From positions 70,832 to 110,831 of the forward strand of contig SBGP01000043.1 in the NCBI GenBank assembly GCA_006226595.1: a stretch of 40,000 nucleotides of DNA, in the 5' to 3' direction. The notes under the pieces were generated by a model. The model saw only the letters and a list, made by a program, of their open reading frames with translations. It was not told the origin of the DNA and ran no database searches. The stretch is from Deltaproteobacteria bacterium. Lineage in GTDB: Bacteria > Myxococcota_A > UBA796 > GCA-2862545. Below, in pieces: positions 13,884-39,512 of the stretch. The translations under genes and the position numbers were made by a program. The number at the start of each line of letters is the position of its first letter. The stretch's first letter is position 1.

Positions 13884-14573
13884 TCACGCTTGGAAGGGCA
13901 ACTCTACCGTCGGGTGCCGGTCGGCGTACTCGCGAATGCCCTCGTTGCGAAGCAAGCACGCGGGACAGGAACGACAGCCCGCATGGGGAATGCCCTCGTA
14001 GCAGGTGATGGTCCGGTCGAGCAGGTACTCGAGCACTCCGTGCTCCGCCGCCAACTCGAGTGTGTCCACCTTGGTCATCGCCACCACAGGTGTGCGAATC
14101 TCAAACTCCGAGTCCCCGAAGTCCATGCGCAGAATCTGCTGCATCAGGTCCATGTACGCTCGCGAGCAGTCCCGGTACCCAGAGTTCGCGCTCTCGATTT
14201 CGATCACGCCCATGTAGATGCAGTGCGCGCCGAGGTGGTTGGCGTGGATGCCCGCGACACGAGCCATGAGGCCGTTTCGGCCCTGCACGAGTGTGTTCGG
14301 TGGAGAGCCGAGGGCGTGCTGGATGGCGATGCTCGAGTCCGTCAACGCGTTGACCGTGACCTCCGCCAGGCAGGTGATCGGAACGACCGTGTGGTCGACT
14401 CCCCACTTCTCGCAAATCTCCTGCGCTCGTTGGAGCTCGACGCTGTGCCGCTGCCCGTACCTGAACGACATGGAGAGGACGTGTTCGGCTCCGAACTCTC
14501 GGATGGCCACAGCGAGGCAGATCGAGGAGTCCATGCCTCCCGAGTGAACGACGACTGCGTGCTTCGGGGTCAT
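13884..14573 (-). CDS. queC: divergent QueC-family PP-loop ATPase (7-cyano-7-deazaguanine synthase paralog), 229 aa
   Basis: Track ORF trimmed to 'MTPKHAVVVHSGGMDSS' (SGGxDS PP-loop). Also 'FRYGQRH', 'GYRDCS' and the C-terminal Zn cluster 'CYEGIPHAGCRSCPACLLR'. It differs from the second copy at otherwise conserved stretches, for example 'LVQGRNGLM' against 'YVPARNTVF'. Confidence 0.85.
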   Translation of the reverse strand: MTPKHAVVVHSGGMDSSICLAVAIREFGAEHVLSMSFRYGQRHSVELQRAQEICEKWGVDHTVVPITCLAEVTVNALTDSSIAIQHALGSPPNTLVQGRNGLMARVAGIHANHLGAHCIYMGVIEIESANSGYRDCSRAYMDLMQQILRMDFGDSEFEIRTPVVAMTKVDTLELAAEHGVLEYLLDRTITCYEGIPHAGCRSCPACLLRNEGIREYADRHPTVELPFQA

Positions 14574-14592
14574 GACAGCTTCCACGATGGAG

Positions 14593-15750
14593 CTACTGTG
14601 CCGGTGAGGGCGAGACACCGCGCTGAGCGCCCCAGCGGAGGAAGCCCTCCGGGTCGCCCTGCACCGCGGCGAGCAACTCCGCGGGGATGACCCCTGCACG
14701 GAGCTTCACCACGACCGGATCCTGCCCGAGCACCTCGGCTGCCCGCTCGAGCGTGTCCACGCTCAGCGGCTTGGCGCCGCTCTCCACTCGAGAGAGGTAC
14801 GAGTTTCCGATCGCGAGGCGGTCGGCCATCTCGCTCTGGCTGATATTGCGAGCCAGGCGCTGGGCCTTCAGCCAGGTGCCGAAGTCCTCGGCTTCCTTGG
14901 TGGGCGAGGTCTGCAGGGCCAAGCGGCCCTGGGCGTCGTCAGCGTCTTCCGCCGACCAGCTCAGGGCGGCAAAGGCCGAGTGATTGTGGATGGACTCAAA
15001 GTTCTCGGCGGCCACGTGGACCTCGTGTACGCCCTCGAGCTTGCGAACCGCGGTCACCACATCGCGGACAAGGTCCTCGACGAACTTTGGGTTCTCGTAG
15101 GCCTTCTCGGTGACCCACTTTTCGTCCTCTCGCTTGAGCAGCGCATAGAGCGGCGAGGAGCCGCAGGCTTCGACCGCCTCGACCACGTCCTCGATCCACA
15201 CGAGCTGGCGTGACCGGAGCTTCACCTGGATCAGGCTTCGCTGGTTGTGGGCACCGTACTCGCTGATGGACTTCGAGCACGGGCAGAGGCTCTTTACCGG
15301 AACGGTGACCCGGAGTTCGAAGTCCTCCACAGGCCCCCGTCGGGAAGCCTTGAAGCCGCAGTGGTACTCCATCAGCGAGCGTGCCCGGCTCACGGGAGCC
15401 TCCTTCTCGATGAAGTAGGGGAACGTCATCTCGATGAACGCGTCGTCGGCCTCCAGCTCGCGCTGGACCTGGGCGAGAATCCCGCCGATGTTCCGGATGG
15501 TGAGTTCGCCGCGCACCTGATTGAGGATCTGGACGAAGCGACTCATGTGCGTGCCCTTCTGATCCGCCGGGAGGCCCACGCACATCTCGATCTGGGCCAC
15601 CGTGCCCTGCATCTGGTTCTGCTTGTCCATGACCTGGATGGGGTAGGACAGGCCGCGGATGCCGACGCGCTCGATGGCGATTCCGCGCTCGTCTGACTCG
15701 CTCGCGTGGTCGGGAAGGTCAGCGAAGAGGTTCAGGGACTCGGACATCAT
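14593..15750 (-). CDS. folE2: GTP cyclohydrolase FolE2 (type IB) fused to a C-terminal XRE/Cro-type HTH domain, 385 aa
   Basis: Start at the ATGATG at 15750, overlapping the queE stop. FolE2 body: 'GIRGLSYPI', 'KGTHMSRF', 'SLCPCSKSISEYGAHNQRS', 'ENFESIHNHSAFA'. The C-terminal 96 aa (14593-14883) contain 'FGTWLKAQRLARNISQSEMADRLAIGNSYLSRVESGAKPLSVDTLERAAEVLG'. Confidence 0.9.
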   Translation of the reverse strand: MMSESLNLFADLPDHASESDERGIAIERVGIRGLSYPIQVMDKQNQMQGTVAQIEMCVGLPADQKGTHMSRFVQILNQVRGELTIRNIGGILAQVQRELEADDAFIEMTFPYFIEKEAPVSRARSLMEYHCGFKASRRGPVEDFELRVTVPVKSLCPCSKSISEYGAHNQRSLIQVKLRSRQLVWIEDVVEAVEACGSSPLYALLKREDEKWVTEKAYENPKFVEDLVRDVVTAVRKLEGVHEVHVAAENFESIHNHSAFAALSWSAEDADDAQGRLALQTSPTKEAEDFGTWLKAQRLARNISQSEMADRLAIGNSYLSRVESGAKPLSVDTLERAAEVLGQDPVVVKLRAGVIPAELLAAVQGDPEGFLRWGAQRGVSPSPAQ

Positions 15751-16388
15751 GGGATCCCGATGAGCTTGTGGGTCTGAAGGGACAGGCGCCATTTGGGATT
15801 GGCCAGGCAGTAGCGGGTGGCGGCTTCGATGTTGGCCGCGGTCCGTCCTTTGGCGTCCATGGGCTGCAGGAAGAAGTGCTCGAAATCGAGGTGCTCGAAG
15901 TCAGTGGGGCTAAGCTCGGGCTGAGGGTAGACGAGCTTCAGTTCGTGGCCCTCGGTCTGGACGATCTCGGAGCGAGGCTTCGGGCTCACGCAAATCCAGT
16001 CCACGCCGGCAGGAACCTTACCGGTCCCGTTGGTCTCCAGGCCGACTTCGATTCCGGCGGCGTGGCAGGCGTCGACGAGTTTCTTGTCCAGTTGGAGCGT
16101 GGGTTCACCGCCCGTGAACACCACGTAGGGGACGCCCCCGCTGCACTCCTCGTCCCAGCAGCGACGAAGGTGATGTGCGAGTTCCGCGGCATCGCGGAAC
16201 TTCCCGCCGCCCGGGCCGTTCGTGCCCACGAAATCCGTGTCACAGAAGCGACAGGCTGCGGTGCTGCGATCCTCCTCGCGACCGCTCCACAAGTTGCAGC
16301 CCGCGAAGCGGCAGAAGACCGCGGCTCGGCCCGCGTGGCCACCCTCACCTTGGAGCGTCAGGTAGACCTCTTTGACCGCGTACGCCAT
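15747..16388 (-). CDS. queE: 7-carboxy-7-deazaguanine synthase QueE (radical SAM), 213 aa
   Basis: 'EVYLTLQGEG', the cluster motif C-x14-C-x2-C ('CNLWSGREEDRSTAACRFC'), 'VVFTGGEPTLQ' and the C-terminal 'RLSLQTHKLIGIP'. Confidence 0.93.
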   Translation of the reverse strand: MAYAVKEVYLTLQGEGGHAGRAAVFCRFAGCNLWSGREEDRSTAACRFCDTDFVGTNGPGGGKFRDAAELAHHLRRCWDEECSGGVPYVVFTGGEPTLQLDKKLVDACHAAGIEVGLETNGTGKVPAGVDWICVSPKPRSEIVQTEGHELKLVYPQPELSPTDFEHLDFEHFFLQPMDAKGRTAANIEAATRYCLANPKWRLSLQTHKLIGIP

Positions 16389-16391
16389 CGG

Positions 16392-17087
16392 CTATGCCAC
16401 CGAGACGTAGCGAGTTGGGTCTGCCATACCGACTTCCTCGAAGCCATCGCGTCGGAGAATGCACGCATCGCACGTCCCACAAGCCACCCCGTCGGACGAC
16501 GGCGCGTAACAGGAGTGGGTGAGCTGGTAGGGGACACGGAGCTCGCGGCCGATGGCGATGATCTCGGCCTTGGTCTTGTCGATCAGGGGTGCATGCACGC
16601 GGATGTGCTGCCCCTCGACGCCGGGCTTGATGGCGAGGTTGGCCATGGCCTCGAAGGCATGGATGTACTCGGGGCGGCAGTCGGGGTAGCCGGCGTAGTC
16701 GAGCGCGTTGACGCCGATGAAGAGGTCGGAGGCCTCGTAGACCTCCGCCACGCCAAGCGCGTACGACAGGAAAACCGTGTTTCGGGCGGGCACGTAGGTG
16801 ACCGGAATCTGGCTCGTCATCTGTTCGAGCGTGCGCGACTTCGGCACGTCGATGTTGTCCGTGAGGGCGGAGCCGCCGATTTGCCGGAACATGCCCACGT
16901 CGAAGATGAGGTGCTCGACGACGTTGTAGTGCTGGGCGATCGCCATGGCGGCTTCGAGCTCGACCCGGTGGCGCTGGTCGTAGTTGTACGACACGACGAC
17001 CGGCTCAAAACCCTGGTCAATGGCCATCGCCAGGCAGGTGGCGGAATCGAGTCCACCGCTGAGCAGGATCACCGCACGCTTCCCCAT
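16392..17087 (-). CDS. queC: 7-cyano-7-deazaguanine synthase QueC (canonical-looking copy), 231 aa
   Basis: Trimmed to '[19 protein letters not shown]'. Also 'YNYDQRH', '[12 protein letters not shown]', 'GYPDCRPE' and the Zn site '[21 protein letters not shown]'. Confidence 0.93.
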
Positions 17088-17172
17088 GTCGACCTCCGAA
17101 GTGGCTTGGGGTATACCGGCGTTGCCCGGTCGAGTCAACGGCCATTTTCCCTGTCAGGTCAACGGAGAGAAC
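17088..17172. promoter_or_regulatory. Divergent queC / queD control region with a direct repeat GTCAACGG x2
   Basis: An 85-bp gap separates divergent starts at 17087 (-) and 17173 (+). GTCAACGG occurs at 17134-17141 and 17158-17165, 24 bp apart. The second copy abuts the queD SD (GGAGAG). No promoter hexamers could be assigned confidently. Confidence 0.35.
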
Positions 17173-17601
17173 ATGGTCACCGTCACCCGCCGCCTCGAGT
17201 GGGACGCCATGCACCGCATCCCGCTGCACGAGAGCAAGTGCAGGGCCTTTCACGGTCATCGCTACGTGGCCGAGATCACCTGTGTGGCGCCTCAGCTGGA
17301 CGAGCTCGGCCGCGTGGTGGACTTCGGGGTCATCAAGTCGCTGGTGGGGACCTGGATCGACGACCACTGGGACCACACTGCCATTCTGATGAGTGGCGAC
17401 CCGGAGGCGACGCCGATCGCCGAGGCCAACGAGCGACTGGGGAGGCCGGTCTACTGGATGAAGGCTCACCCCACCGCGGAGAACATCGTCAGCGAGCTCG
17501 CGGGGGTCGCGCAGCGTCTGCTTGACCCCACGGGGGTGACAGTCGTTCGGATTCGACTGTGGGAGACGCCCAACGGGTCGTCCGAATGGACCCTTGGGTG
17601 A
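17173..17601 (+). CDS. queD: 6-carboxy-5,6,7,8-tetrahydropterin synthase QueD, 142 aa
   Basis: Track ORF 16984..17601 trimmed to 'MVTVTRRLEWDAMHRIP'. Zn/catalytic motif 'CRAFHGHRY', 'VVDFGVIK', 'DHWDHTAIL' and 'RLWETPN'. Confidence 0.92.
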   Translation: MVTVTRRLEWDAMHRIPLHESKCRAFHGHRYVAEITCVAPQLDELGRVVDFGVIKSLVGTWIDDHWDHTAILMSGDPEATPIAEANERLGRPVYWMKAHPTAENIVSELAGVAQRLLDPTGVTVVRIRLWETPNGSSEWTLG

Positions 17602-19062: not shown

Positions 19063-20163
19063 TCAGGTGTTCGCCTGATCCCGCACCCACCGTTGATACT
19101 GGCGAGTCAGGTGGTTCGCGAGGAGGTTTACGTCCTGGCTGGTGTTCTGCACGTCATCCCAGCGTCGCTTCACATCTCCACCGAAGTCCCAGTAGCCCTC
19201 GTTCCAGCGACAGTGAGGCTTGATCCCGGCCAAGTGGGTGGTGAAGTCCTCTTCGGTCGGCCAGCGGTCCCGGAACCCATCGGAGATGGCGTCCATCAGG
19301 AAGCCGAGGGTGACCACACCGGCGCCGTGAAGCAGACGGGACTGGCGCGGCTTCAGATCCCAAAGCTCCGGCCACGTGCGACGGACAGCCGACCAGTACC
19401 CAAACAGGACTTGCTGCATCACCGTCTGGGCCTGGTCCGTTTCAAGCAGGCGGATGCGGTACAGGACGCCGTCCGACAGGCTGTTCTCGAGGAAGCGCAG
19501 GATCGAGTTGTCCTTGATCTTGGCGCCCGGGTTCGTGGCCGTGGAGATGGCCTGGTACAGCGGGGAGTCTTCCCGATGGTTGAGGACCTCGAGGATCGAA
19601 GCGGGCAACTTCCGCTTGTCGAGGTGGCTCGGCATCCGGGCGTCGACGCCCGGGAGAAGCTCGTAGATGAGGTTCTTCGGTAGCGGCTTGGTCGAGTTCA
19701 CCAGCATGAACTGCTCTCGGGCTTCCGAGTCCGACTCGGCGACGAAGCCGATCGCGAACATCGGGAAAGTCTCGACCCTGGCCTCGCGAATCGCGGCGAT
19801 CCGCTGCTGCCCATCCACGATCCAGCCCACCTTGTCCTCGGGGTCGACCGGGACCTTCAGGACGCCATGGGTACTTGCGCCATCCGCAGAGCTACCGGTG
19901 GGTTCGAAGCGCACTCGGGAATCGAAGGCTAGCACCAGGGCGTTCGGCACCATGGGCTCCTCACTCTCCACGTACGCTCGGATCTCCGCGATGTGCTTGC
20001 GCACCTCGGGCCGCTGGTAGCCGAGCAAGCGTCCGTCCTCGTCTCGGGACACTCGGGAGACCGAGGCGAAGGTGGGAATCGACTTCGCGTCTACGCCGAA
20101 GGCGTAGATGGTCTTGCCGGGGCTCTGGCTCAACGCCAGGGCGGGGATGTCCAAGACAGTCAT
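19063..20163 (-). CDS. dpdB: DGQHR-domain (DndB/DpdB-like, ParB-fold) protein, copy 1, 366 aa
   Basis: Trimmed to 'MTVLDIPALAL...' (ATG 20163, ATGA overlap with the dpdA stop). Motifs: 'SVSRVSRDEDGRLLGYQRPEVRKHI', 'GWIVDGQQRIAAI', 'FMLVNSTKPL', 'YWSAVRRTWPELWDLKPRQSRLLHGAG'. Confidence 0.8.
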   Translation of the reverse strand: MTVLDIPALALSQSPGKTIYAFGVDAKSIPTFASVSRVSRDEDGRLLGYQRPEVRKHIAEIRAYVESEEPMVPNALVLAFDSRVRFEPTGSSADGASTHGVLKVPVDPEDKVGWIVDGQQRIAAIREARVETFPMFAIGFVAESDSEAREQFMLVNSTKPLPKNLIYELLPGVDARMPSHLDKRKLPASILEVLNHREDSPLYQAISTATNPGAKIKDNSILRFLENSLSDGVLYRIRLLETDQAQTVMQQVLFGYWSAVRRTWPELWDLKPRQSRLLHGAGVVTLGFLMDAISDGFRDRWPTEEDFTTHLAGIKPHCRWNEGYWDFGGDVKRRWDDVQNTSQDVNLLANHLTRQYQRWVRDQANT

Positions 20164-21431
20164 GTGGAGCTTTCCTCGAGTGCGGAACGGTGTGCGTGTA
20201 GCACTTGTTGGGTGTGCCAGAGGTTGTGGAAGCCTCGGCGGCGGTTCCTGTTGGCGCCGCGGAAGACGATGACGTCGATGCCGAGGTCGCGGCAGACCGC
20301 ACACGGGCAGTTCTCCCAGGGACGGTCGGTGAGGGTCCGGCGGATGCGGTCCCACCTGGACGCTCCGCCGTACAACTCCTCGTAGGCCTGGAGATGCCCA
20401 AGGGCCTCGTCGACGCTGGTCGTGCCCTCACCTACGCCCTTCACGGCGTCCTGGCACGCGCGTTCTTTCCTGAACGCCTCCTGCTGGTTGACGGCGCCGC
20501 TGCGGATGGCTCGAAGCAACTTCGAATACTTGTCGGCCTGCGGGATGCGGACGGCGGTGTAGTGGCCGAGGGGGTCGGAGGAGTAGTAGTTGTTGCGGGC
20601 ATCCTTGAAGGCCTGGCGCATCGGAGAGGCGCTGTCCAGGCTCACCACACCAGCTCGCGTGTACGCCTGGAAGTTCTCCAAGCGGGTGATGCCGAACAAG
20701 TGGAGGCGCAGTCGACCTTGGGTGACGCCCCGGACTGCCTCCAGTACCTCCAGGATCTGGTCGGTCTTCAACGGGACCAGACCCCCGAGAGCCACGTAGT
20801 CGTAGCCCATGGCGATCAGCTGCTCGACCGCGCGCGAATAGGAGCGCGGCGACCAGCCCTGGGCAATTCCAACCGGCTGGAAGTCATAGTTGCCGGCTCG
20901 GACCTTCCGCAGAAACTCGGCGGCGAGCGTGAGCGTCAGGTCGAATCGCTGCTGGAACTCGGGAGGAACGGCGTTGCCGAGCAGCCCTGGTTCATCGAGC
21001 TCTGGACTATAGGCGCCAATCATGTGGTCGACGGACACGCCGTGCGTGAACTGGCCTGCTTCGTAGAAGTCGATCACCTCGTCCACCGAGTAGGGTGGCT
21101 CCGGTAGATCTCGGTAGTTGAAGGCACCGCAGTCGCCGAGCAAAGGCCAGTCTGCGGGCTCGAACTCGGGTTGCGTCGGGAAGCGCAGGAACCGACGCGC
21201 GCCGTTCCTCATGAAGCGTAGGCGTTGGGCCTGGGTGTAGCGGCCTTGGACGCCGTCCATGTCGAGCAGGAACTTGCTGACCAGGAGGCCGTCGTACGGA
21301 CGCTCCGGCGCCATGAGCTCGTGCGCATACACGTCGTCCCGCTGCGGGATGCGGTCCCGGGGCGAGGTTTCGGTCTCGAAGTCGAAGCGAGGGTCGACGA
21401 GGTCGAGTGCGTCAGCGTAGAAAAACCGCAT
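20160..21431 (-). CDS. dpdA: DpdA, TGT-fold DNA 7-deazaguanine (preQ0) transglycosylase, 423 aa
   Basis: TIM-barrel TGT-like features: 'YDYVALGGLVP', 'LHLFGITR', 'VSLDSASP' and the Zn knuckle 'CPCAVCRDLG...NRRRGFHNLW'. It sits between DGQHR genes next to preQ0 biosynthesis genes. Confidence 0.85.
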   Translation of the reverse strand: MRFFYADALDLVDPRFDFETETSPRDRIPQRDDVYAHELMAPERPYDGLLVSKFLLDMDGVQGRYTQAQRLRFMRNGARRFLRFPTQPEFEPADWPLLGDCGAFNYRDLPEPPYSVDEVIDFYEAGQFTHGVSVDHMIGAYSPELDEPGLLGNAVPPEFQQRFDLTLTLAAEFLRKVRAGNYDFQPVGIAQGWSPRSYSRAVEQLIAMGYDYVALGGLVPLKTDQILEVLEAVRGVTQGRLRLHLFGITRLENFQAYTRAGVVSLDSASPMRQAFKDARNNYYSSDPLGHYTAVRIPQADKYSKLLRAIRSGAVNQQEAFRKERACQDAVKGVGEGTTSVDEALGHLQAYEELYGGASRWDRIRRTLTDRPWENCPCAVCRDLGIDVIVFRGANRNRRRGFHNLWHTQQVLHAHRSALEESST

Positions 21432-22552
21432 CAGGACCGGTGAAGCGCCAGCGTGTACTCGCGCATGAGGTGGTTGGTGAGAAGCCGGACGCTCTTAGGC
21501 GTGTTCTCGATTTCCTTCCAGTGAAGATCGCCCAGACCCTCCCAATGCCCCGAAGTCCACCGGCAGAGGGGTGCAACTCGGGCGACTTCGACGAGGGCGT
21601 GCTCGTAGAGACCCTCAGAGGATGGGTTTGCGCGGCCCATCACCTGGTCCATCAGTCCACCCAGGGCCTTGATGCCAGCGCCGTGCATCAGCCGGCTGCG
21701 CGTGGGCTTTAGCCCCCATGCTTCGGGGAAGGTGTCCCGGACAGCGGACCAATAGGCGATGAGCAGCGCAGTGACGGCCTCCGTGTCCGTTTCCCCCGTC
21801 GCCATGTTTCGGAATGGAAAGAGGCAGCCGCCAGGCTTGGTGAGCCGTTCCTTGATCATGTCCACCACGGCGGTGTCGTTGACGACAGCGTCCTTGCTGT
21901 TCCGCGCGGAAGGCCGAGCGATGAGGCCCTTGAACGGGCTCTCGGGGTGGCGGTTCAGCAGGTCGCAGATGGCCGACGGCAGTTTCCTCACCGACAAGCG
22001 CCGGGGCAGGTCCGTGTCCACATTCGGGAGCAGTTCGGTAATCAGCCGACGGGGCAGGGGACGCGTGTTGTTCACGCGAAGGAACTGGTCTCGCTGCGTC
22101 GCGAGGTCTCCTCCCATGAAGGCGACCACAGGGATGGGGAGGTCGGATGACTTCGTGCGCGAGAGGGCGATTGCGCGCTGCTGTCCATCCACGATCCACC
22201 CGGGCGGGCTGCTGGTGTCCGGAACGGAAATGTCGATCACGCCGCTGATCGCCAGCCCGTCGTCCGTCATCGGGCCTCGGGACTTCCGGAACGAGAGCCC
22301 CCATTCGAACGCGAGGATGATGGCGTTCGGAAATAGGACCTGGCCGGAGTCGACGTAGTCCTGAATGTCCTGGATGTGCTGACGAACCTCGTCGCGCTGG
22401 TAGCCGATGAGCTCGCCATCGTCGTCGCGACTCACCCGCGAGATGGACGCCACCTTCAGCAGCTCGTGCGGTGCGAGAGCGAAGACGTACACCGGGTGCT
22501 CATCGTGCTGCTTGAACTGCAGCGCGCGTCGCGAGATCTCGATGGGCTTCAT
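21431..22552 (-). CDS. dpdB: DGQHR-domain (DndB/DpdB-like) protein, copy 2, 373 aa
   Basis: Trimmed to 'MKPIEISRRALQF...' (ATG 22552, ATGA overlap upstream; the stop shares 1 nt with the dpdA ATG). Motifs: 'SISRVSRDDDGELIGYQRDEVRQHI', 'GWIVDGQQRAIAL', 'FLRVNNTRPL', 'YWSAVRDTFPEAWGLKPTRSRLMHGAG'. It aligns by eye with copy 1 along the whole length. Confidence 0.8.
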   Translation of the reverse strand: MKPIEISRRALQFKQHDEHPVYVFALAPHELLKVASISRVSRDDDGELIGYQRDEVRQHIQDIQDYVDSGQVLFPNAIILAFEWGLSFRKSRGPMTDDGLAISGVIDISVPDTSSPPGWIVDGQQRAIALSRTKSSDLPIPVVAFMGGDLATQRDQFLRVNNTRPLPRRLITELLPNVDTDLPRRLSVRKLPSAICDLLNRHPESPFKGLIARPSARNSKDAVVNDTAVVDMIKERLTKPGGCLFPFRNMATGETDTEAVTALLIAYWSAVRDTFPEAWGLKPTRSRLMHGAGIKALGGLMDQVMGRANPSSEGLYEHALVEVARVAPLCRWTSGHWEGLGDLHWKEIENTPKSVRLLTNHLMREYTLALHRS

Positions 22553-23529
22553 TCCTGGTCCCCTTGAATACGTCGGAACAGCCGGCCGAACTTCTTCTGC
22601 TCGTACGCAAAGCCGGCGTCGCGAAACTGCCGAAGAGCCGCGCTCGCGGACGTCGGTGGCGTTTCGCTCGCCAGGGCCTCTCGCACCCAGTTCTCCACCT
22701 GCCACTCATGCTGCCGGAGCCGCTTCGGGTAGGTGGTCGCGGGTGCTTCCTCCAAGACGTCGGCCATGACCTGTCGGCAGCGGCCCGGCGTGAGGTCCGC
22801 CGGCGTCGCGGCCTGCTCCATCACGCGAGCTAGAGCCCGAACGGTCAGCTGTCCGGTTGGACCGCCAAGCACGCTTCGCATCCTTCCCTCGAGTGGGACG
22901 GCGGACGTGCCGAGGGCATCGATGGCTTCGGTGTCGGTGGTGAACACCGAAAGTGCTCTGGCTCCCAACTGCGCTTGCAGGACCTGCAGATCCGGCAAGA
23001 CGACGCGGAGGTACTCGCCAGGGAGGGCGACGACGATTCGGTCGTCGTCTTCTGCCAATCCGCGGAGTGCATCGCGTCCGCCGATCATCTTCCACCAGGC
23101 GAGCCGTCCCGAGTGACCGCCGGGCCCGTCCCCCCCGGGGACGGTGTCCGAGTGTCCCGGGTTGAAGGTCGCGGCATAGGCGGGCACGGCATCCGTGAAC
23201 TCCCGCAGCCCTACACCCGCGCTTGCGACCCAAGCGCGGACCGGCAGATGCGTGTCGTGAACCATCTGGCGCGCGACGGACCAGTATCCGCCCTTGTACA
23301 GGCGGCTGATCTTCACGCGGTCGTCCGCCGCGTTGAGTTCATCGAGCCAGGAGAGCGCGGCGATGTGTGGCAGCAAGTGCTTGTGCTGACGAACCCGTAG
23401 TTGCTTCTTGGGTACGAGCGTCTTGGACGCCGTGCACGCGAGCACGCAATGGACCACTGATTCCCCCCGGGGCCTGCTTGTACAACGGGTCGAGCTCGCA
23501 CGCAAGAAAGTGCAGCACATCATGCTCAT
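22549..23529 (-). CDS. first gene of the modification operon; DpdC-position protein of unknown fold (326 aa; likely 302 aa from GTG 23457)
   Basis: Complete track ORF. The first 24 aa ('MSMMCCTFLRASSTRCTSRPRGES') look non-native, and GTG 23457 follows 'GGGGGGAA'. The core begins 'VVHCVLACTASKT'. Assignment to DpdC rests on operon position only. Confidence 0.55.
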   Translation of the reverse strand: MSMMCCTFLRASSTRCTSRPRGESVVHCVLACTASKTLVPKKQLRVRQHKHLLPHIAALSWLDELNAADDRVKISRLYKGGYWSVARQMVHDTHLPVRAWVASAGVGLREFTDAVPAYAATFNPGHSDTVPGGDGPGGHSGRLAWWKMIGGRDALRGLAEDDDRIVVALPGEYLRVVLPDLQVLQAQLGARALSVFTTDTEAIDALGTSAVPLEGRMRSVLGGPTGQLTVRALARVMEQAATPADLTPGRCRQVMADVLEEAPATTYPKRLRQHEWQVENWVREALASETPPTSASAALRQFRDAGFAYEQKKFGRLFRRIQGDQE

Positions 23530-23719: not shown

Positions 23720-26700
23720 TTGGCACCTAAGTTCGTGATTGGCCGGAAGGGCGGGTGGGGTCCTGGGAGATTGCTGTCACGGGATGGTCCGAACATCACC
23801 GTCGAACACTTCGTGAAGCCCGCCTCCTCTGGTCAGGTCAGGAAGGTCGTCCGGAGAGTGTCTGACGCCGTCCAGTGGACGCCAACGGTTCGCACTCGCC
23901 TGTACTTCGAGGACAAAGCCGGCCGTTGGCACGTTGGCTTGTTCCGCTGGGTGGACGACTTCACTGGCGACTACGTGTTGCAGGTTCCTGGCCAGGAGTT
24001 CATCCAGGTGGATCCACGCCGCATTCACGTACGGTGGAGGGGGGCCAGGGCAAATCCGCGTACAAACCTTGGTAACCACTTCTTGGAGTCGCCCCTCTAC
24101 CACAATGCCCGCCGGCGTCTGGTTCGTGCTTTGGGCGAGCAGAGGGCACGGGCTGGCGGCATGACCGGGCTGTTGTCCGCCTCTGTCGAGTTGTACCCCC
24201 ACCAAGTCGAAGTGGTCCGCCGTGTGCTGCAGGACCCCGTGCTTCGCTACCTCCTCGCCGATGAGGTTGGTCTGGGCAAGACCATCGAGGCCGGGGCCAT
24301 CATTCGCCAATACCACTTGGACCGGAGCCGAACGATCAGTCGCTCACACACCATCGCCATCGTCGTCCCTCCAGCGCTAACGCACCAATGGCGACACGAG
24401 TTGGCGACCCGCTTTCAACTCGACCCGCGCGTGACTCCTGGTCTACGACTCCTGGATTTCGAGGATGTCGAGAACGGAGAGCTGCCTGATAGCGTAGGTC
24501 TTTTGGTAGTCGATGAGGCCCACCATGTCGCTCGGCCGAAACCTCGTGCTGGGAGCGCTTCGGCCCTGATCCAGGAGGCGGCGCTCAGCGCGCCGTCGTT
24601 GCTGCTCCTCTCCGCCACCCCGGCCCTGCACAACGAGGCCGCATTCCTGACCATGCTGCACATGCTGGATCCCACGATGTACGACGTCTCGGATGTAGAA
24701 GGGTTCCAGGAGCGACTTCGATCTCGCACCGAACTCGCAGAGGCGTTCTCGGACTTCCACGAGGGGGCTGACCCCGATGAGCTGGAGGAGGTCTCGGCGC
24801 TGTTTCGGGAGATGTTTCCGGCAGATACCCGTCTCGCGAACCTGCTCGACCAGGTAGACGACGCCGTCGAGGGGGCTATCGACGTGAACGAGGCTGCTCG
24901 CGGGGCCGTGCGGGCCGCGCGAGTCCACATTGGAGAGACGTACCGGCTCCATCGACGTGTCTTGCGGAATCGGCGCGGCGGTGCGAGCGTGGAGTACCCC
25001 GTACGCGGCCGAAGTGGCCTGACCGTCGTCAGGTATGTTTCTTCGGCGGAAATTGAACTCGACTCCATCCTCGAAAACTGGCGGCTCGACGCGCTCGTCA
25101 GGTGTGCCTCTGGGGACCGCCGCGTGTACGCGGACGCCTACCTGCGGTTGCTGCAGGCGCGGCTTGAGGGTGACAGCGCGCTCGCCGAGGCGGCCTCCGA
25201 GGTCTCTGGGGGCCTTCCGTCGATGGCTCACCTGTCGGCGGAACTGAGGGAACAGGCCCTGGAACTCTCGGCCTCTCGGGACCGCGTTCTCGCGTTTCTC
25301 GACTGGCTGCGTGAACGCGAACACGGACCCTGCCGAATCGTTGTGTTCGCTGACGAGACGCCTGGTCTTGCCGAGGACTTTCATGGGAAGACCGGCTTTA
25401 GTCTGTTCAGACTCCACGGTCGGATGAGTCGTGTCGCCATTCGGGATGTCATCCAGTCCTTCGAGGCCACGGAACGCTCGGTCCTTCTGTGCGACGAGGC
25501 GGGGGAGGAGGGCGTAAACCTCCAGTTTGCCGATCATCTCGTCCACTGGAACTTGCCCGCCTCACCCAATCGCATCGAGCAGCGGATGGGCCGACTTGAC
25601 CGCCACAACGATCGCGACCGGCCCGCGGTGCCCGTGACGGCGTTTCTGCCGAGTGACGCGGATGCATCTCTGCCGGGCGCCTGGCTGGAGTGGCTCGACG
25701 GTGCCCTCTGCGTGTTCGACCGGTCTGCCTCGTCGCTGCAGTTCTTCCTCGATGGATTGATGCCGGATGTCTGCAACCAGTTCTTCGATGACGGTCCGGA
25801 CGGCGTACGAGTGCGTCTGAAGGGGGATAGGCAGAGCATCGACCTCGAACGGCGGACAATCGCCCGTCACCAGAATCTGGACGCGATCGAGGCCTCGATG
25901 TCCCCCGCTCAACAGATTCTGGACAGGGTTCGCGAGGCGGAAGTGGAATGGCGACAACTTCAGGAGGACGTCGAGGAGTGGGTGGTGCGGACCCTGCAGG
26001 CAAGGAGGGAGACTGATGGCCGACGCGCTGGGTCTCCCGTGAGATACCAGTTTCCTCGGGAGAGCCATGTTCCGAAAACTGACCTGGGCACCTACTTTTC
26101 GGGTTGCCTGTCCGTAGAGGATGAGCATCTGCGGACCACTCCCGTGACGGCGTGGATGACCTTCGACCGCGGCTGTGCGGTCGCCTCCGGGACGACGATT
26201 GCCAGGCCTGGATCCGACTTCCTGGAGAGTCTGACGGCCTACCTCGACTGGGATGATCGGGGCACGGCCTACGCGATGCTTCGCTTCCGGCCCGGCGTCG
26301 AGAAGTTGGAGCCCCCCCCCGTCGTATTCCGATTTGACTTCGTCGTGAGCGGACAAGCACGCACGGCTGCCGACGTGGTGGAGTACCGGCTGGCGAGAAA
26401 GGCGGTGGAGCGCCGCATGGACGAGCTGTTCCCGCCGCTCGTGCATACGGTGTGGATTGATCAGGGGGGACGTGTCGTCGCGGACGAACGCCTGCTCGCC
26501 GTTTTGAGAGAGGAGTTTAGGAAGCGGCGAAGAGTCGATACCGTGGGGTGGGACTTCGACCTCGGTAACCTCTGGAGCGTAGACGACCGAGAGCCCCGGG
26601 CGGCTGTACCTCGAAGGCACCAGAAACTGGTGAAGCCAGAGCGACGTCGACGTGTGAAGGAGATGGCTGCTGCGTGGGGCGCCCGAGGTCCGGTCTCCGA

Positions 26701-27007
26701 ATACTTTCTTTCCGATGACTGGGACGAGCTTTGTCTCGCCGTGCGCAACCAGGCGCAGGAGGCTCTCCGCGAACAACTTCGGCTCGCCGAGCGGTGCGAG
26801 ACGTTGGCAGGACGTGCGCAGGAGAGGGCGCGGACCAACCAGCAGCAACTCGAGATGCGTGCCGAGTTGGACGGCGCCGACCACATCCAGGCCGAAATCC
26901 GCACTCAAGCCGCGCTGTATGCTGCCTTGGTGGAGGGCGTTCGTAACCCCTCTGTTCGTCTCGATGCCGTCGGCGTCTTCTTCTTGACGGGGACGCCGCT
27001 GCCATGA
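23720..27007 (+). CDS. dpdE: SNF2/RapA-like helicase, 1095 aa (DpdE-type)
   Basis: TTG start. Motif I 'LLADEVGLGKTIEAG', II 'LLVVDEAHHV', III 'LLLLSATPALHN', C-terminal helicase lobe 'LLCDEAGEEGVNLQFADHLVHWNLPASPNRIEQRMGRLDRH'. It is the first gene of the operon divergent from dpdC/B/A. Confidence 0.8.
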   Translation: MAPKFVIGRKGGWGPGRLLSRDGPNITVEHFVKPASSGQVRKVVRRVSDAVQWTPTVRTRLYFEDKAGRWHVGLFRWVDDFTGDYVLQVPGQEFIQVDPRRIHVRWRGARANPRTNLGNHFLESPLYHNARRRLVRALGEQRARAGGMTGLLSASVELYPHQVEVVRRVLQDPVLRYLLADEVGLGKTIEAGAIIRQYHLDRSRTISRSHTIAIVVPPALTHQWRHELATRFQLDPRVTPGLRLLDFEDVENGELPDSVGLLVVDEAHHVARPKPRAGSASALIQEAALSAPSLLLLSATPALHNEAAFLTMLHMLDPTMYDVSDVEGFQERLRSRTELAEAFSDFHEGADPDELEEVSALFREMFPADTRLANLLDQVDDAVEGAIDVNEAARGAVRAARVHIGETYRLHRRVLRNRRGGASVEYPVRGRSGLTVVRYVSSAEIELDSILENWRLDALVRCASGDRRVYADAYLRLLQARLEGDSALAEAASEVSGGLPSMAHLSAELREQALELSASRDRVLAFLDWLREREHGPCRIVVFADETPGLAEDFHGKTGFSLFRLHGRMSRVAIRDVIQSFEATERSVLLCDEAGEEGVNLQFADHLVHWNLPASPNRIEQRMGRLDRHNDRDRPAVPVTAFLPSDADASLPGAWLEWLDGALCVFDRSASSLQFFLDGLMPDVCNQFFDDGPDGVRVRLKGDRQSIDLERRTIARHQNLDAIEASMSPAQQILDRVREAEVEWRQLQEDVEEWVVRTLQARRETDGRRAGSPVRYQFPRESHVPKTDLGTYFSGCLSVEDEHLRTTPVTAWMTFDRGCAVASGTTIARPGSDFLESLTAYLDWDDRGTAYAMLRFRPGVEKLEPPPVVFRFDFVVSGQARTAADVVEYRLARKAVERRMDELFPPLVHTVWIDQGGRVVADERLLAVLREEFRKRRRVDTVGWDFDLGNLWSVDDREPRAAVPRRHQKLVKPERRRRVKEMAAAWGARGPVSEYFLSDDWDELCLAVRNQAQEALREQLRLAERCETLAGRAQERARTNQQQLEMRAELDGADHIQAEIRTQAALYAALVEGVRNPSVRLDAVGVFFLTGTPLP

Positions 27008-29526
27008 GTCCACTGGGATACGACGACGTTCGGGCTGTACTCCGTGGCGATACGGATGCCATCCTGCCTCCGATTGATGGGCGGCCGCCGACCGCCAGCG
27101 AGCGCCTTATCCACGCAATCGAGTCACTCGGCTCTGCCGAGGAGAGCGTCGGGCCATTCGATTTGGCGCAGCTCGTGCGGCAGGTCCTCCTCAAGGAAGG
27201 GCATGAGCGAGGCGTGGACCTCTCGCTCACGGTGCCACTCGGGCCTCCGTGGCCGACTCCGGAGCAATGGCGTGCGGCGTCCTGCGTACCCGTCCACAGC
27301 ACGGCCTGGTGTGAGGTGCGAGCGAAGCCCTGGGCGCCTGACTGGCTGTCGGACGCCCCATTCCTCGACGCCGTCAGGGAAGTTCCTCGCCGAAACGAGA
27401 GCAGGAGTGTGCCCTCCGACCCCGCGTTGTCAGAACTGTTCGGGGAGCAGTACAGCCACTATCAGGGCGAGGGCCAGCGAGCGGTTGTGCACGCGGCCTT
27501 CTTCTGCGCCCCTGGCTCGACGCTTCTCGGAATGCTCCCCACGGGGACCGGGAAGAGTCTCGTGTTCCAACTCGCGAGCGCCGTCCACACCGAGCACGGG
27601 GGGACCGTCGTCGTGGTGGTGCCCACCACGTCGCTTGCCGTCGACCAGGAGCGCGCGCTGCGGGAGGTCACTCGGTCAATGCCTGGCACATGGCCGGACG
27701 ACTTTGCATACTTCCACGATCTGGAGCCGGAGAGGCGATCCGATCTTAGACGTCGCATCCGGTCCGGGACCCAGCGTGTGGTCTTTACGTCGCCGGAAAG
27801 CCTCGTGAACAGTCTACGGCCCGCCCTGTACGACGCTGCTGGCGCCGGTTTGCTCCCGTACTTCGTGGTGGACGAGGCTCACGTCGCGGCAGGATGGGGC
27901 ACTGAGTTTCGCCCCCAGTTCCAGGCAATGGCGGGCCTCCGCGCTGGACTTCTTGAGGCATGCCCGGCAGAGCAGAGGCTTCGAACACTTCTTCTCACGG
28001 CAACGTTGGGCAGCGATGGCTTCGACCTCTTGCGCGACCTGTTTCGCGGCGCGGGTCGGTTTGACGTGATCTCGGGTCTACACCTGCGTCCAGAACCGAC
28101 GTATTGGTTCCACCACTCACCCGATGACTCGCACCGGAGCCGGGTTGTCGAGGCTTGCCGTCACCTCCCACGGCCTTTCGTACTCTACACTTCGCTGAAG
28201 AACCCCGGTCACTCCTCGGGGAGCCTGTCGGCGCGGGAGTGGTATGGCATTCTCGGCGATGCCGGCATCCGTCGCGTCCGGGTCGTGGACGGCGACACCT
28301 CTCGGTCGGACCGCGAAGCCGTCATCGAAGCCTGGCGGTCTGGCGAGGTGGACGGCGTAATCGCGACGAGTTCATTCGGACTCGGCGTTGATTTGGCGAA
28401 TGTTCGCGCTGTACTCCACGCCTGTGTTCCTGAGACCGTCGATCGCTACTACCAAGAGGTTGGAAGGGGGGGCAGAGATGGGAAGGCGTCGGCGTCCCTG
28501 GTCGTGTGGAGGGATTCAGACGTTTCCGTCGCCGAGGGACTCAACCGGCAGAAAGTCATCGGCGCCAAGAAGGGGGCGAAGCACTGGCACCAGCTGTGGA
28601 CGGAACGCAGGAGCGTGGGTGAGGGCGCATGGGCTCTCAATCTTTCGACCGTAATGCCCTGGCTGCAGGAGGACAGTCCGGAAAACCGACAGTGGAACGT
28701 GCGCACGCTGACCCTGCTGGCTCGCGCCCGCATGATCCGCCTAGTCGACCGTCCGCCGGACCGCGAGGACCCCGTGGATGACGACGATCAGCGAGTTCCG
28801 ATACTCGTTGTCCAGACCGTGGCGGCCCCGTCCGACTTGGCTGACCCGGGGTTCTGGGCGCGCCCTGGCGGCGGGATTATACGCGCTAGGGAGCGGATCC
28901 ACGCTGCCACCAAGCAGAGCCTGGCGTGGATGATGGAGCTGCTCAACGGCAATGCTGAAGTCGGCTCGGTGCTCCAGGCGGCCTTCGAACTGCCGGGCCA
29001 GCCACCGCCAGTGCACGTGTGTGCTGGGTGTCCGCGATGCCGCAGCCAGGGCCACCCGGCCAGACAGTACACGCTGCCCGAACCCCATCCATTGCGAGAC
29101 CCCTGGCCGCGGTTGGACGACGCGCGCTTCGACGGTGGTCCCTCGTTGGTGTTCTACCAGCCTGGCAGCAGGCTCGAATCTAGGCGCCTGCGTTCAGTGA
29201 TTCAGGACCTTGTGACTCTGGGGTTCGCGGATCTCACGCTACCGGCGGACCTCTGGATGGACAGGGAGTTGCGTGGACTGTGGCGTCGTGCCCCAGCTCG
29301 TTTCGTGGTCCGGCGCACACACGTAGACCAGGACACGGTCGCTCTCCCGCGGGTGACCGTTTGGCCCAACGAGGTCGACCGTGACCTTCGGCAGCTCCTG
29401 CTTCCCGCGGTCGACCCTCATTTGGTGTTTCTTCCGGAGGACACGCCGGATCCAGCGAATCCACGTCGCCTACTGCGGGAGGTTCGTCAGCATCAAACGC
29501 TCATCGCCTTGAAGGAGTCGCTCTGA
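27004..29526 (+). CDS. dpdF: RecQ-like DEAH helicase, 840 aa (DpdF-type)
   Basis: ATGA overlap with the upstream stop. 'MLPTGTGKSLVFQL', 'FVVDEAHVAAGWGTEFRPQF', 'LLLTATL', 'VIATSSFGLGVDLANVRAVLH', 'YYQEVGRGGRDG'. A Cys cluster 'CAGCPRC' lies in the C-terminal part. Confidence 0.8.
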   Translation: MSPLGYDDVRAVLRGDTDAILPPIDGRPPTASERLIHAIESLGSAEESVGPFDLAQLVRQVLLKEGHERGVDLSLTVPLGPPWPTPEQWRAASCVPVHSTAWCEVRAKPWAPDWLSDAPFLDAVREVPRRNESRSVPSDPALSELFGEQYSHYQGEGQRAVVHAAFFCAPGSTLLGMLPTGTGKSLVFQLASAVHTEHGGTVVVVVPTTSLAVDQERALREVTRSMPGTWPDDFAYFHDLEPERRSDLRRRIRSGTQRVVFTSPESLVNSLRPALYDAAGAGLLPYFVVDEAHVAAGWGTEFRPQFQAMAGLRAGLLEACPAEQRLRTLLLTATLGSDGFDLLRDLFRGAGRFDVISGLHLRPEPTYWFHHSPDDSHRSRVVEACRHLPRPFVLYTSLKNPGHSSGSLSAREWYGILGDAGIRRVRVVDGDTSRSDREAVIEAWRSGEVDGVIATSSFGLGVDLANVRAVLHACVPETVDRYYQEVGRGGRDGKASASLVVWRDSDVSVAEGLNRQKVIGAKKGAKHWHQLWTERRSVGEGAWALNLSTVMPWLQEDSPENRQWNVRTLTLLARARMIRLVDRPPDREDPVDDDDQRVPILVVQTVAAPSDLADPGFWARPGGGIIRARERIHAATKQSLAWMMELLNGNAEVGSVLQAAFELPGQPPPVHVCAGCPRCRSQGHPARQYTLPEPHPLRDPWPRLDDARFDGGPSLVFYQPGSRLESRRLRSVIQDLVTLGFADLTLPADLWMDRELRGLWRRAPARFVVRRTHVDQDTVALPRVTVWPNEVDRDLRQLLLPAVDPHLVFLPEDTPDPANPRRLLREVRQHQTLIALKESL

Positions 29527-30437
29527 TGACCATGCTTAACTCCGCGAGTGACGGCCACCCTGTGGTGTGGCGCTCCATGGTCTGGACGCTTGCGTCGGCT
29601 GCAGACGGGACGATGCCCAGCAGTCAGCTTGAGGCATTGATGGCGCCCCGGACGGTTCAGCTTCGGGAAGAAGGCAAGTTCTTCCGCACGTCCCTGCTGA
29701 GGGCGTCAGAACTCGGTGTTCTCGAGGAACAGGGTGCCAGTGTGGGGCTCTCTTCTGGGTACGCGTCCCTACAGCCAGGTGACGTTCGGGCCTTCAGGAT
29801 CCGCATGCGTCGAGCGGTGCTCGAACCGCAGAATGCCGAGCCGCTGTTTGGTGAGGGAGACCAGGGTGGGGTTTCCGCCGATCTCGTGCGTGCCCTCGCA
29901 TGGTTCCTCGCGGTGGATGGGCTGCCTGGTGTCGGGCACAACGCTGTGGACAGGAGGTTGGGCGAAACCATGTTGGACGGCCAGCTTCACACGCCGCAGG
30001 GACAGGTCCGGTGGAATGCCTTCCGGGAGTGGGCGACCCTCCTCGGGTTCGTGTGGGAAGCCGGAAGTGGTCGTGTGAAGGCGGTGGTGGCCGACCCCAC
30101 GGTCGCCATTCACGATGAACTCGCGGACATCTTCGGCGATCAGACCGTAGTGAGCCAGGCGGAGTTTCGGGACTCCTTGGCGCGACGGCTCTCGGTCCTC
30201 GATGGTGGACGCTACCGCATCCAGATGGAAGCGTCGATGAAAGCCGATGCAGTGGAACGCCAGCACGTACGTCAGTTTTCCGCCTCAACCGCGAGAGCGC
30301 TCCGCCGCCTACGCGCGATCGGGGCTCTGCGATGGGACCGTCGCTCGGACATAGATCTCGCATTCTTTGGAGCTCCAGGAGCTTCAGGGTCCGAGAGTGC
30401 ATCCCACTTCATCCGTGGTGAGGCTCTCGATGCGTGA
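29526..30437 (+). CDS. hypothetical protein, 303 aa (DpdG position)
   Basis: Complete track ORF. The start shares 1 nt with the upstream stop (TGATG). No motif recognised. Confidence 0.6.
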   Translation: MTMLNSASDGHPVVWRSMVWTLASAADGTMPSSQLEALMAPRTVQLREEGKFFRTSLLRASELGVLEEQGASVGLSSGYASLQPGDVRAFRIRMRRAVLEPQNAEPLFGEGDQGGVSADLVRALAWFLAVDGLPGVGHNAVDRRLGETMLDGQLHTPQGQVRWNAFREWATLLGFVWEAGSGRVKAVVADPTVAIHDELADIFGDQTVVSQAEFRDSLARRLSVLDGGRYRIQMEASMKADAVERQHVRQFSASTARALRRLRAIGALRWDRRSDIDLAFFGAPGASGSESASHFIRGEALDA

Positions 30438-33400: not shown

Positions 33401-33774
33401 TGCACGTGAAGCTTCAGAATGTGCTCGAGATCGCTCGTGAGCGAGGACTCGGACTCGAGCCTCAGAGGCAACTCAAACGAGCCCTAGAGGCCGTTGAAGG
33501 TGACGACCTGGCGGAAGCGAGAGGCCGCCTTGCGGCAGTTTCGGGCCGACCGGCGGAGATACCCCCATACGAACTCGCCCGGGCTTCGACCCCAGCTGTG
33601 GTGAAGCTCGTGGCGCTTCTAGACGCGGCATCCTCTCTCATGGATGCTGTGGAGCCCCTTTTGGACGTCGCATCCCACGTCGGTGGAAGCGCTGCTGAGG
33701 CGTACCGGCGGGAGGTCGACGGCCTGCTCGGTGCTTTCGTCGAGTGGACGGCCCCTGAGTTGGGGGCCAGATGA
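30430..33774 (+). CDS. large P-loop NTPase, 1114 aa, with an internal Pro/Gly/Ser linker (DpdH position)
   Basis: Track ORF 30367.. trimmed to 'MRELQRYWPE' (ATG 30430, 8-nt overlap with the upstream stop). Walker A 'ITGRSGCGKSHFIVWL'. Walker-B-like 'ELVFLAEDFSVL'. The linker 'PGTGSSPGAGLSPGPSPSPSPGAGHSPGPSPSPGAGQSPRPSPGAAPRPGAGSTPTPGAGPGQGG' is followed by a ~400-aa helical C-terminal region. Confidence 0.7.
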   Translation: MRELQRYWPERVQGTSIINADADVIQEPSVVLATHQEVTLLKQSVDLVAGDGAQGVEVSEEEFLDYFLQDCDNANMLAPITGRSGCGKSHFIVWLEARLLRRDDADRRHIIRIPKGASFRSVIRRILADLRGDAYTELHERVKRAGNSLTTKAAREWVVAGVNIALDNIHADLTGALERYAEVQRTDEVKARIRDLQQRLRHATGLQALLSDNLFKRDHFFAEGQAIDRIAVRIVHGKKRSADPIEFQVAAEDFVLPEELERLVSTSAGAPAQAYYQWLMGETQRNRDKRALAAQVMNQALDLAIPRVLQLGDNELNEVLRAIREQLEEEGRELVFLAEDFSVLAGIQGALLDAMTVPRGGAGRPLCVMRTALAVTDGYISERDTIATRARFQFRMPERVVDQETIVDFVAEYLNAERHGTVDLNAWYREQADGPSSPLLPPLEIVDLDREYLDAFGYSTRGIPLFPLSRTAIREILRVKLRTEGGGLVFHPRTIVNHVLIEVFKNHARSFAHGQFPPAAFELYKERPLDSMAPLLTSQVMRLAPTHSDGQRWLVLLRFWGGAPIDMTEARSLNARVYEAFGLPVLPGTAVNQVGPGTSAAEGSGRRSAEVLMPISGPSVDAPTPGTGSSPGAGLSPGPSPSPSPGAGHSPGPSPSPGAGQSPRPSPGAAPRPGAGSTPTPGAGPGQGGTPAEPIQQWDRVLTEWRNGAMLPTEQANLLRTWVLGLVLRHVDWEAEGLRQPVASLGAQKKVWLGEAAAGGIAEGACHIRVGGLEVDTDADRHGLHLALQGLVRFELGGWRFDFENADVLYEHLMARLATWHAQFVEWYRASCPDLVVAEVKLLSALAVIERGSMMTLEDVGDLFERHRSNAGGPVAWRDLHHALDFERASRIDLLLGLVGIFQGGHVDARQNQQLLALDGWRILCAMEGLEPSVCPEISGLSKNKTYQRNTEEAAREVAKRWTHALAAQRSWLRMQSERVLTSIPADAGSLHVKLQNVLEIARERGLGLEPQRQLKRALEAVEGDDLAEARGRLAAVSGRPAEIPPYELARASTPAVVKLVALLDAASSLMDAVEPLLDVASHVGGSAAEAYRREVDGLLGAFVEWTAPELGAR
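32296..32500. repeat. Low-complexity coding repeat (about 36-bp imperfect unit 'tggggcgggtca[c/g]agcccg[g/a]ggccgagtccgagtcc', about 3 copies at 32322-32432)
   Basis: Read directly from the sequence. It encodes the PG/SP linker of the P-loop protein. Confidence 0.8.
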
Positions 33775-39018: not shown

Positions 39019-39512
39019 TTCAACAGTTCTCCCTTTCCTCGGGCGCCGAACGTCGCCGCGCGATGCACATGCTGCAATCCTTGCTGGTGGCTGAACTCCT
39101 CGGCACACCAGACGCACTCTTCCTTGCGCTGACAAGTTGGGAGGAGGCGGTGGTGGTCGATAACACCCATGGGGGCTTCTCCACGCTCTGTCCCGACTGG
39201 CCGAGAGGTCCGGTCAGGTTGTCGGCCATCGTGCTGCAGTTTCTACGTCGGGGTCGGGAGGTTCACATCCTCGGACCTGTTGCCGACGCGCCGTTCGTCG
39301 ACCGGCTCCGGCGGGAGGTGGAGCGACTCGGGCTCGATGGCCTTCACTGCCGAGACGTCACCTCGACCGAGAGCGCCATTTGTTCTGCCAGGTTCTCCCT
39401 GGACGGAGATGTGGAGTCGCTGCTTTCTGGTGCTGCTGACGGACGGGTGCGTTTTCAAGCGGATCCCAGCTTGGCGGATGTGAGATGTCGCAACCTCCGG
39501 GAGGCCGAATGA
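39015..39512 (+). CDS. hypothetical protein, 165 aa (DpdK position; no HKD motif seen)
   Basis: Complete track ORF. GTG start in a GTGA overlap with the helicase stop. Confidence 0.5.
   Translation: MIQQFSLSSGAERRRAMHMLQSLLVAELLGTPDALFLALTSWEEAVVVDNTHGGFSTLCPDWPRGPVRLSAIVLQFLRRGREVHILGPVADAPFVDRLRREVERLGLDGLHCRDVTSTESAICSARFSLDGDVESLLSGAADGRVRFQADPSLADVRCRNLREAE

Follow-up and report, generated by a model that had tools for sequence, protein, structure and literature searches.

What does a DNA modification cluster do with two copies of a protein that its best-studied relative has only once? The biochemistry of Dpd modification comes only from the single-DpdB form (PMC10164549); mechanistic work on this 7-deazaguanine DNA modification and restriction system all uses the Salmonella version. 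The locus considered here is a stretch of 40,000 nucleotides from a Deltaproteobacteria bacterium of the Myxococcota_A lineage (assembly GCA_006226595.1, contig SBGP01000043.1, positions 70,832 to 110,831), referred to below as the window. In it, dpdA is flanked by two genes for DGQHR proteins, named relative to dpdA: B1 is the downstream copy and B2 the upstream copy. An inspection of the sequence alone, here called the original prediction, had taken this arrangement for an unusual new variant and had rightly stated that the described Salmonella system uses one DpdB (PMC10164549). The arrangement B2-A-B1 is not novel; it is the commonest form among the sampled relatives of the known Dpd system. 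A second, strictly conserved DpdB paralog is present in the majority of sampled related clusters, and it is apparently uncharacterised.

Two DpdB proteins around dpdA

The four genes of the module are co-directional on the minus strand, in the order dpdC-dpdB2-dpdA-dpdB1 (Table 1), with stop/start overlaps of 4, 1 and 4 nucleotides. The dpdC stop and the B2 start overlap in ATGA, a junction absent from the original prediction; the B2 stop and the dpdA start have one nucleotide in common (TGATG), and the dpdA stop and the B1 start have four (ATGA). The open reading frame (ORF) table and the junction sequences bear out the gene coordinates, the lengths of 366 and 373 amino acids and the 1- and 4-nucleotide overlaps first reported. 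The modification operon is translationally coupled. The identity of its central enzyme is clear, as the window DpdA matches the Salmonella DNA-guanine transglycosylase (PDB 7UI4) with an E value of 2.5e-110.

The proteins on either side of dpdA are both members of the DpdB family, as had been proposed. They score 441 and 412 bits with the DpdB equivalog profile NF041060 (cut-off 300), and each is aligned at positions 2-352 of its 352 positions. The PADLOC DpdB model matches B1 at 1.7e-137 and B2 at 3.5e-136, and B2 also scores 203 bits with TIGR03187. A DpdB is further expected to be encoded beside dpdA in a dpd cluster: both genes overlap dpdA, and dpdC and dpdE-K are present, dpdI as a weak match. 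Compared with each other by BLASTP, B2 and B1 have 141 identities in 362 positions (39%, E 1e-86) over their full length, which is far beyond chance. All the shared stretches that had been picked out by eye (SRVSRD.DG.L.GYQR.EVR.HI, GWIVDGQQR, VN.T.PL, YWSAVR.T.PE.W.LKP..SRL.HGAG and CRW..G.W) lie in this alignment, and the description of the two as full-length but strongly diverged paralogs stands.

Both proteins do read DGQQR, but this is not the deviation that it had seemed to be, because the same motif is described for Salmonella DpdB (PMC10164549); it is also at least 90% conserved in each of the DpdB groups compared. These groups are B1 from single-copy loci, B1 from paired loci, and B2, comprising 129 sequences. 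In all three, 58 alignment columns are at least 90% conserved, and these include the nucleoside triphosphatase (NTPase) motifs. Conserved in all three groups and in both window proteins are GYQR, H57/59, PN73-74/75-76 and VDGQQR (V-D-G-Q-Q-R-x-x-A).

The possibility that one copy is a decaying pseudogene, which had been raised at the outset, was looked at, and neither copy is one. A degenerate copy is ruled out by the intact common motifs and by a constraint on B2 equal to that on B1. Mean pairwise distances are 0.67 for B2, 0.68 for B1, 0.71 for DpdA and 1.41 for DpdC; judged by these distances, B2 is as constrained as B1 and DpdA and far more constrained than DpdC. With all NTPase motif residues retained, B2 is predicted to be catalytically intact.

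B2 also has features of its own. Many B2-specific columns are at least 90% conserved, and its signature substitutions (given from B1 to B2) are L154→R159, which sits inside the F-x-x-V-N-x-T-x-P-L motif, T208→R213, T210→S215, R126→S131 and D344→H354. It is the more basic protein, with a net charge of +1.9 against -2.7 for paired B1 in the N-domain and +6.5 against +3.6 in the C-domain. The residues that define the B1 clade are identical whether or not B2 is present at the locus. A sequence search of the PDB found no solved DpdB structure; AlphaFold2 (AF2) models reach a predicted local distance difference test score of 91.4 for B1 and 82.8 for B2.

An old duplication and probable repeated loss

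A neighbour-joining tree of 133 DpdB sequences divides exactly into 51 upstream and 82 downstream copies. When five other DGQHR proteins are added as outgroups in a second tree, the upstream and downstream clades are reciprocally monophyletic sisters, with bootstrap values (out of 100) of 82 for B2, 95 for B1 and 99 for B1 and B2 together. All upstream copies (51/51) are in one clade, with the window B2 inside it, while all single-copy DpdBs fall in B1, including those of the Enterobacterales loci with C-A-B architecture. Identity is 54-56% within the clades (56% for B2), 38% between them, and 31-42% for pairs from the same locus.

Adjacent paralogs readily suggest a tandem duplication that is recent and confined to the lineage of this genome, yet here nothing except the adjacency of the two genes speaks for one, and its probability is vanishingly small. 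Each window copy has orthologues with 50-81% identity in other phyla, far closer than the 39% between B1 and B2, and the 120 best database matches of each window query are all in that query's own clade; together with the reciprocal monophyly, this rules a recent duplication out. The alignment and phylogeny, which had been suggested as a means of separating recent duplication from ancient paralogy, give the latter, and the strong divergence of the two proteins is that of two old clades.

In a tree of DpdA, the one-B and two-B states are interspersed, with at least 14 changes of architecture. Because B2 is monophyletic, these changes are most simply losses of B2. As far as the trees can tell, the duplication is old and B2 is an extra that has probably been lost repeatedly, and both its position and its clade make B1 the counterpart of the characterised kind of DpdB.

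The frequency of the arrangement was examined with a DpdA profile, made from a 45-sequence alignment of 50%-identity cluster representatives and scanned against one genome per GTDB species. This gave at least 586 DpdA-encoding stretches, from which the best 80, those closest to the window DpdA, were analysed. These loci span Myxococcota, Actinomycetota, Acidobacteriota, Planctomycetota, Gemmatimonadota, Cyanobacteria, Verrucomicrobiota, Enterobacterales and others. Their architectures were read by tblastn with the window proteins; five loci were cut by a contig end, which left 75 to be evaluated. The B-A-B architecture is found in 47, A-B only in 27, and one locus is without B. The gene order is always C-B2-A-B1 or C-A-B1, and none of the 75 loci has the upstream copy alone. 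Among 50 loci with B2, the stop codon of B2 runs into the dpdA start in 40, by 4 nucleotides in 34 and by 1 nucleotide in 6. In a separate annotated collection, two DpdB genes occur on 9 of 17 dpdA plasmids, and the Prokaryotic Genome Annotation Pipeline (PGAP) names both DpdB. In addition, a survey published in 2025 found, across 2335 islands, 801 extra copies of dpdB (PMC12235509). Dpd clusters thus routinely carry two DGQHR genes, an outcome that the original prediction had itself named as telling against an unusual arrangement, and the claim of a new variant therefore falls. The window is a typical example of an arrangement already annotated by PGAP and already counted in that survey. What may be unpublished is the split into B1 and B2 clades, the assignment of the studied DpdB type to B1, and the repeated loss of B2.

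The locus comparison revealed no pattern between the presence of B2 and the presence or absence of DpdD or DpdE. The genes for preQ0 (7-cyano-7-deazaguanine) synthesis are distributed differently. Within 8-kb flanks (loci L005-L084), queC, queE and folE2 were found in 28, 29 and 21 of 37 loci of the B2-A-B1 type and in 6, 4 and 5 of 20 loci of the A-B1 type, counts that are not corrected for phylogeny. By these counts, the two-B form looks self-sufficient and more complete, and the one-B form looks reduced.

Several loci depart from the common pattern. In two of them (L015 6882-7919 and L039 6885-7919), the B2 frame stops about 80 nucleotides short of dpdA and gives a shortened match, which is possibly decay in progress. 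Another (L064) has a third, convergent DpdB-like gene at 2756-3820 on the minus strand, equidistant from B1 and B2, and in L004 (753-2849) the place of DpdB is taken by a gene annotated as DndB, close by and on the other strand. B1-type genes without a dpdA neighbour occur on plasmids of Variovorax, Nonomuraea and Euzebya (L087 4995-6562, L088 4959-6065 and L089 4977-6122). On the Variovorax plasmids, the orphan adjoins a DUF6884 (DpdC-like) gene and a type I-E cas operon; on the Euzebya plasmid its neighbours encode a DNA cytosine methyltransferase and an AAA ATPase; the Nonomuraea copy is isolated.

Fusions were also encountered. Five representatives, less than 50% identical to one another, are DpdA::DpdB proteins of 753-804 amino acids (P0253, P0260, P0266, P0303 and P0321). 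The fused DpdB is always B1-type, and one A::B1 fusion, from a cluster that lacks B2, was confirmed in an NCBI assembly. These natural fusions lend independent support to the link between B1 and DpdA. The locus L085 (3976-6378) has the order folE2 - dpdC - helix-turn-helix (HTH) gene - A::B1 - dpdD, without B2. An apparent B2::DpdA fusion (P0263, L086 4579-8122) was considered as Rosetta-stone evidence and rejected: on its ENA contig it is bracketed by DndB fragments that were called separately, which suggests frameshift errors and not a real fusion. Many DpdA representatives, among them P0247, P0249, P0262, P0273 and the 698-residue DpdA of Allocoleopsis PCC 7113, have an N-terminal extension of 280-480 residues without an NCBIfam match.

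Possible roles of the second DpdB

In the studied system, DpdC converts preQ0-DNA to 7-amido-7-deazaguanine (ADG) DNA, and in Kineococcus radiotolerans the deoxynucleosides dADG and dPreQ0 have been validated experimentally. Salmonella DpdB is a homodimer and an ATPase, and its ATP hydrolysis is needed for the exchange of guanine for preQ0 in DNA by DpdA, while DpdC works independently of DpdA and DpdB (PMC10164549). By analogy, preQ0 in the window would be supplied by the adjacent folE2, queD, queE and queC genes, DpdA would swap guanine in DNA for it, and DpdC would then hydrate dPreQ0 to dADG. B1 corresponds to the single DpdB of the Enterobacterales C-A-B clusters, as its position and clade indicate, theirs being the architecture of the characterised Salmonella system. 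B2 would be an accessory second ParB-like ATPase subunit, an ancient sister paralog found only immediately upstream of dpdA and only together with B1. A heterodimeric B1/B2 clamp on DNA would replace the B1/B1 homodimer, with B2 increasing the affinity for DNA or adjusting loading and the choice of targets. Clusters would be able to do without B2, as its many losses suggest, and the Enterobacterales type would be one of the forms reduced in this way. An accessory ATPase subunit, most likely acting in a B1/B2 heterodimeric clamp, is the role that we tentatively prefer for B2, with a confidence that falls somewhat short of even.

This places the two mechanistic suggestions of the original prediction on different footings. 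A B1/B2 heteromer is plausible, while the retention of the NTPase motifs in both copies makes a clean split of the ATPase and DNA-recognition roles between the two the less favoured idea.

It is conceivable that B2 does not partner B1 at all. It could act alone as a homodimer, either as a nucleotide-responsive regulator similar to DndB or as a second loader that gives DpdA or DpdC other targets. A regulatory role is described for the related DndB (PMC5699537, PMC12707154), and B2, more basic than B1, has conserved substitutions of its own in the common motifs (L154→R159, T208→R213 and R126→S131). An independent function would also fit the loss of B2 on at least 14 occasions with no change in the clade-defining residues of B1. 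However, B2 is seen only beside dpdA and in the company of B1, while solitary B1-type genes exist, and the tight coupling of B2 to dpdA is conserved. The strongest residual co-variation of B2 is with B1, and it retains all the NTPase motif residues, as does the catalytic B1. Independent action of B2 is possible but rather doubtful.

Several points weigh against the heterodimer that we prefer. Firstly, the contact between B1 and B2 is an inference. Secondly, the co-variation is to be read with care: after removal of the common signal, the partial correlations of B2 distances are 0.39 with B1, 0.23 with DpdA and 0.20 with DpdC (0.53 between B1 and DpdA), values that carry no significance test and come from non-independent distances. 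Thirdly, B1 works alone, because B2 has been lost cleanly and the clade-defining residues of B1 are unchanged by it; this speaks against a heterodimer that is obligatory and is equally compatible with an independent function of B2. Fourthly, coupling within an operon need not mean stable assembly, because Salmonella DpdA and DpdB gave no stable complex in size-exclusion chromatography (PMC10164549). Finally, the share of two-copy loci (63%, 47/75) is inflated by the choice of loci, which are the 80 nearest to the window DpdA; the figure in the published survey implies roughly one third.

A third view of B2, as a functionally redundant duplicate of B1 that is kept for dosage or is slowly decaying, would account for its frequent loss and for the shortened frames in L015 and L039. 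The conservation data largely refute this. Whereas the two clades are about 38% identical, B2 sequences from many phyla share 56% identity and are at least as conserved as B1, many B2-specific columns are at least 90% conserved, and the position and overlaps of the gene are fixed. Redundant duplicates are not maintained in this manner, and redundancy is accordingly very improbable.

It is tempting to go further and to regard the B1/B2 pair as the ancestral and majority form of DpdB, an asymmetric heterodimeric clamp in which the basic B2 would serve DNA loading or target selection of DpdA. This is speculative and may well prove wrong. If the pair is ancestral, the studied system would be a reduced derivative, and the density or specificity of modification would differ between one-B and two-B systems. 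An asymmetric pair, if real, would also be a natural means of telling apart the parts that DpdB plays in ATP binding, DNA loading and DpdA activation. The gene order will not surprise a Dpd specialist, but the unstudied second subunit is a reasonable experimental lead.

The island and its known relatives

The window is best read as a complete, ordinary Dpd island with the most common four-gene modification operon (Table 1). Within the dpdA-K set, A, B, E, F, G, H and J exceed the NCBIfam cut-offs, and C and K are recognised by PADLOC only; the dpdC-like gene had no match in NCBIfam or Pfam profile scans. A block for preQ0 supply spans 13884..17601 and includes two queC-like genes, and the restriction-side block, divergent and on the plus strand, spans 23720..39512.

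Table 1. Coordinates of the Dpd island genes in the window, with the evidence for each assignment
Feature	Position	Strand	Product and evidence
queC-like	13884-14573 (or to 14699)	minus	one of the two queC genes scores 171 bits with QueC TIGR00364, the other is assigned by translation and tblastn matches in other dpd loci
folE2	14593-15792	minus	C-terminal HTH (residues ~305-359); NCBIfam FolE2 272 bits
queE	15747-16388	minus	translation and tblastn matches to other dpd loci
queC	16392-17138	minus	evidence as given for the queC-like gene
queD	about 17173-17601	plus	QueD TIGR03367 62.6 bits, below cut-off 89.25
ORF	17646-19040	plus	464 amino acids; convergent to dpdB1
dpdB1	19063..20163	minus	downstream DpdB, 366 amino acids; NF041060 441.3 bits; DGQQR residues 117-121
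dpdA	20160..21431	minus	DNA-guanine transglycosylase, 423 amino acids; NF041059 504 bits (cut-off 200)
dpdB2	21431..22552	minus	upstream DpdB paralog, 373 amino acids; NF041060 411.6 bits; DGQQR residues 122-126
dpdC-like	22549..23529	minus	326 amino acids; PADLOC DpdC models PDLC02817 1e-46, PDLC02818 4e-38
dpdE	23720-27007	plus	NCBIfam DpdE 810 bits, above cut-off
dpdF	27004-29526	plus	NCBIfam DpdF 763 bits, above cut-off
dpdG	29526-30437	plus	NCBIfam DpdG 171 bits, above cut-off
dpdH	30367-33774	plus	NCBIfam DpdH 529 bits, above cut-off
weak dpdI-like	33771-34496	plus	DpdI 31 bits, cut-off 150
dpdJ	about 34500-39018	plus	NCBIfam DpdJ 1631 bits, above cut-off
dpdK	39015-39512	plus	PADLOC DpdK 2.6e-13

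No recognisable dpdD was found in the window. The 464-residue ORF has the place and orientation of dpdD in L001 (an Enterobacter plasmid) and L085; it was considered as a divergent DpdD and rejected, having no similarity to the Enterobacter DpdD. It has no match in Pfam, NCBIfam or PADLOC, and none by tblastn in 84 comparison loci. The G+C content falls from about 72% (positions 1-8000) to about 64% (8000-40000), and this drop near position 8000 suggests the boundary of an island acquired by horizontal transfer. Neither a tRNA gene nor a recognisable integrase was detected in the window.

Beyond the Dpd systems, a structural comparison can be made with the ParB, Noc and PadC CTPase clamps, which head the fold matches of the two AF2 models (5k5d, 6sdk, 6ryk and 7nfu). 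These matches are weak (best E 0.04, template modelling score at most 0.35); DpdB uses ATP and not CTP, and its C-terminal domain differs. Both window proteins have the GxxRxxA-type motif of these clamps (G-Q-Q-R-x-x-A), and for DpdB a model of a nucleotide-gated homodimer has been put forward (PMC10164549). DndB (TIGR03233 / PF14072) and SspE have a DGQHR-type ParB-like N-terminal domain like that of B1 and B2, both of which match Pfam DndB. However, the DndB equivalog TIGR03233 has a cut-off of 328 bits, and B1 reaches 24.3 bits and B2 gives no match; no dnd genes lie near the module. Unlike DpdB, DndB is described as a regulator and not as an ATPase required by the modifying enzyme (PMC5699537, PMC12707154), and the nuclease motif of SspE is reported to be absent from DpdB (PMC10164549).

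Counterparts already in databases include two plasmid clusters, for which no functional study was found in the literature searched. NZ_CP017427.1 of Methylobacterium sp. XJLW and NZ_CP073079.1 of Caulobacter sp. S6 have the same (C-)B2-A-B1 order and the same 1-nucleotide TGATG junction between B2 and dpdA. The 4-nucleotide overlap of dpdA and B1 is present on the Caulobacter plasmid and, with the B1 start given by PGAP, on the Methylobacterium plasmid. On both, queE, queD and queC adjoin, and PGAP labels both copies DpdB. They differ from the window only in sequence, with identities of 46-47% for B2 and 37-39% for B1.

The characterised system is that of Salmonella enterica serovar Montevideo, with dpdC-dpdA-dpdB and dpdD-K (Gedara et al., NAR 2023, PMC10164549). 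The likeness of its DpdB to B1 is drawn from position and the Enterobacterales clade; the single DpdB of Enterobacterales is in the B1 position, downstream of dpdA with a 4-nucleotide overlap, and in the B1 clade. The window differs in having its preQ0 genes within the island and no detectable dpdD. Its DpdA, DpdC and DpdE-K families are the same as those of Salmonella, and between dpdC and dpdA it has the additional B2.

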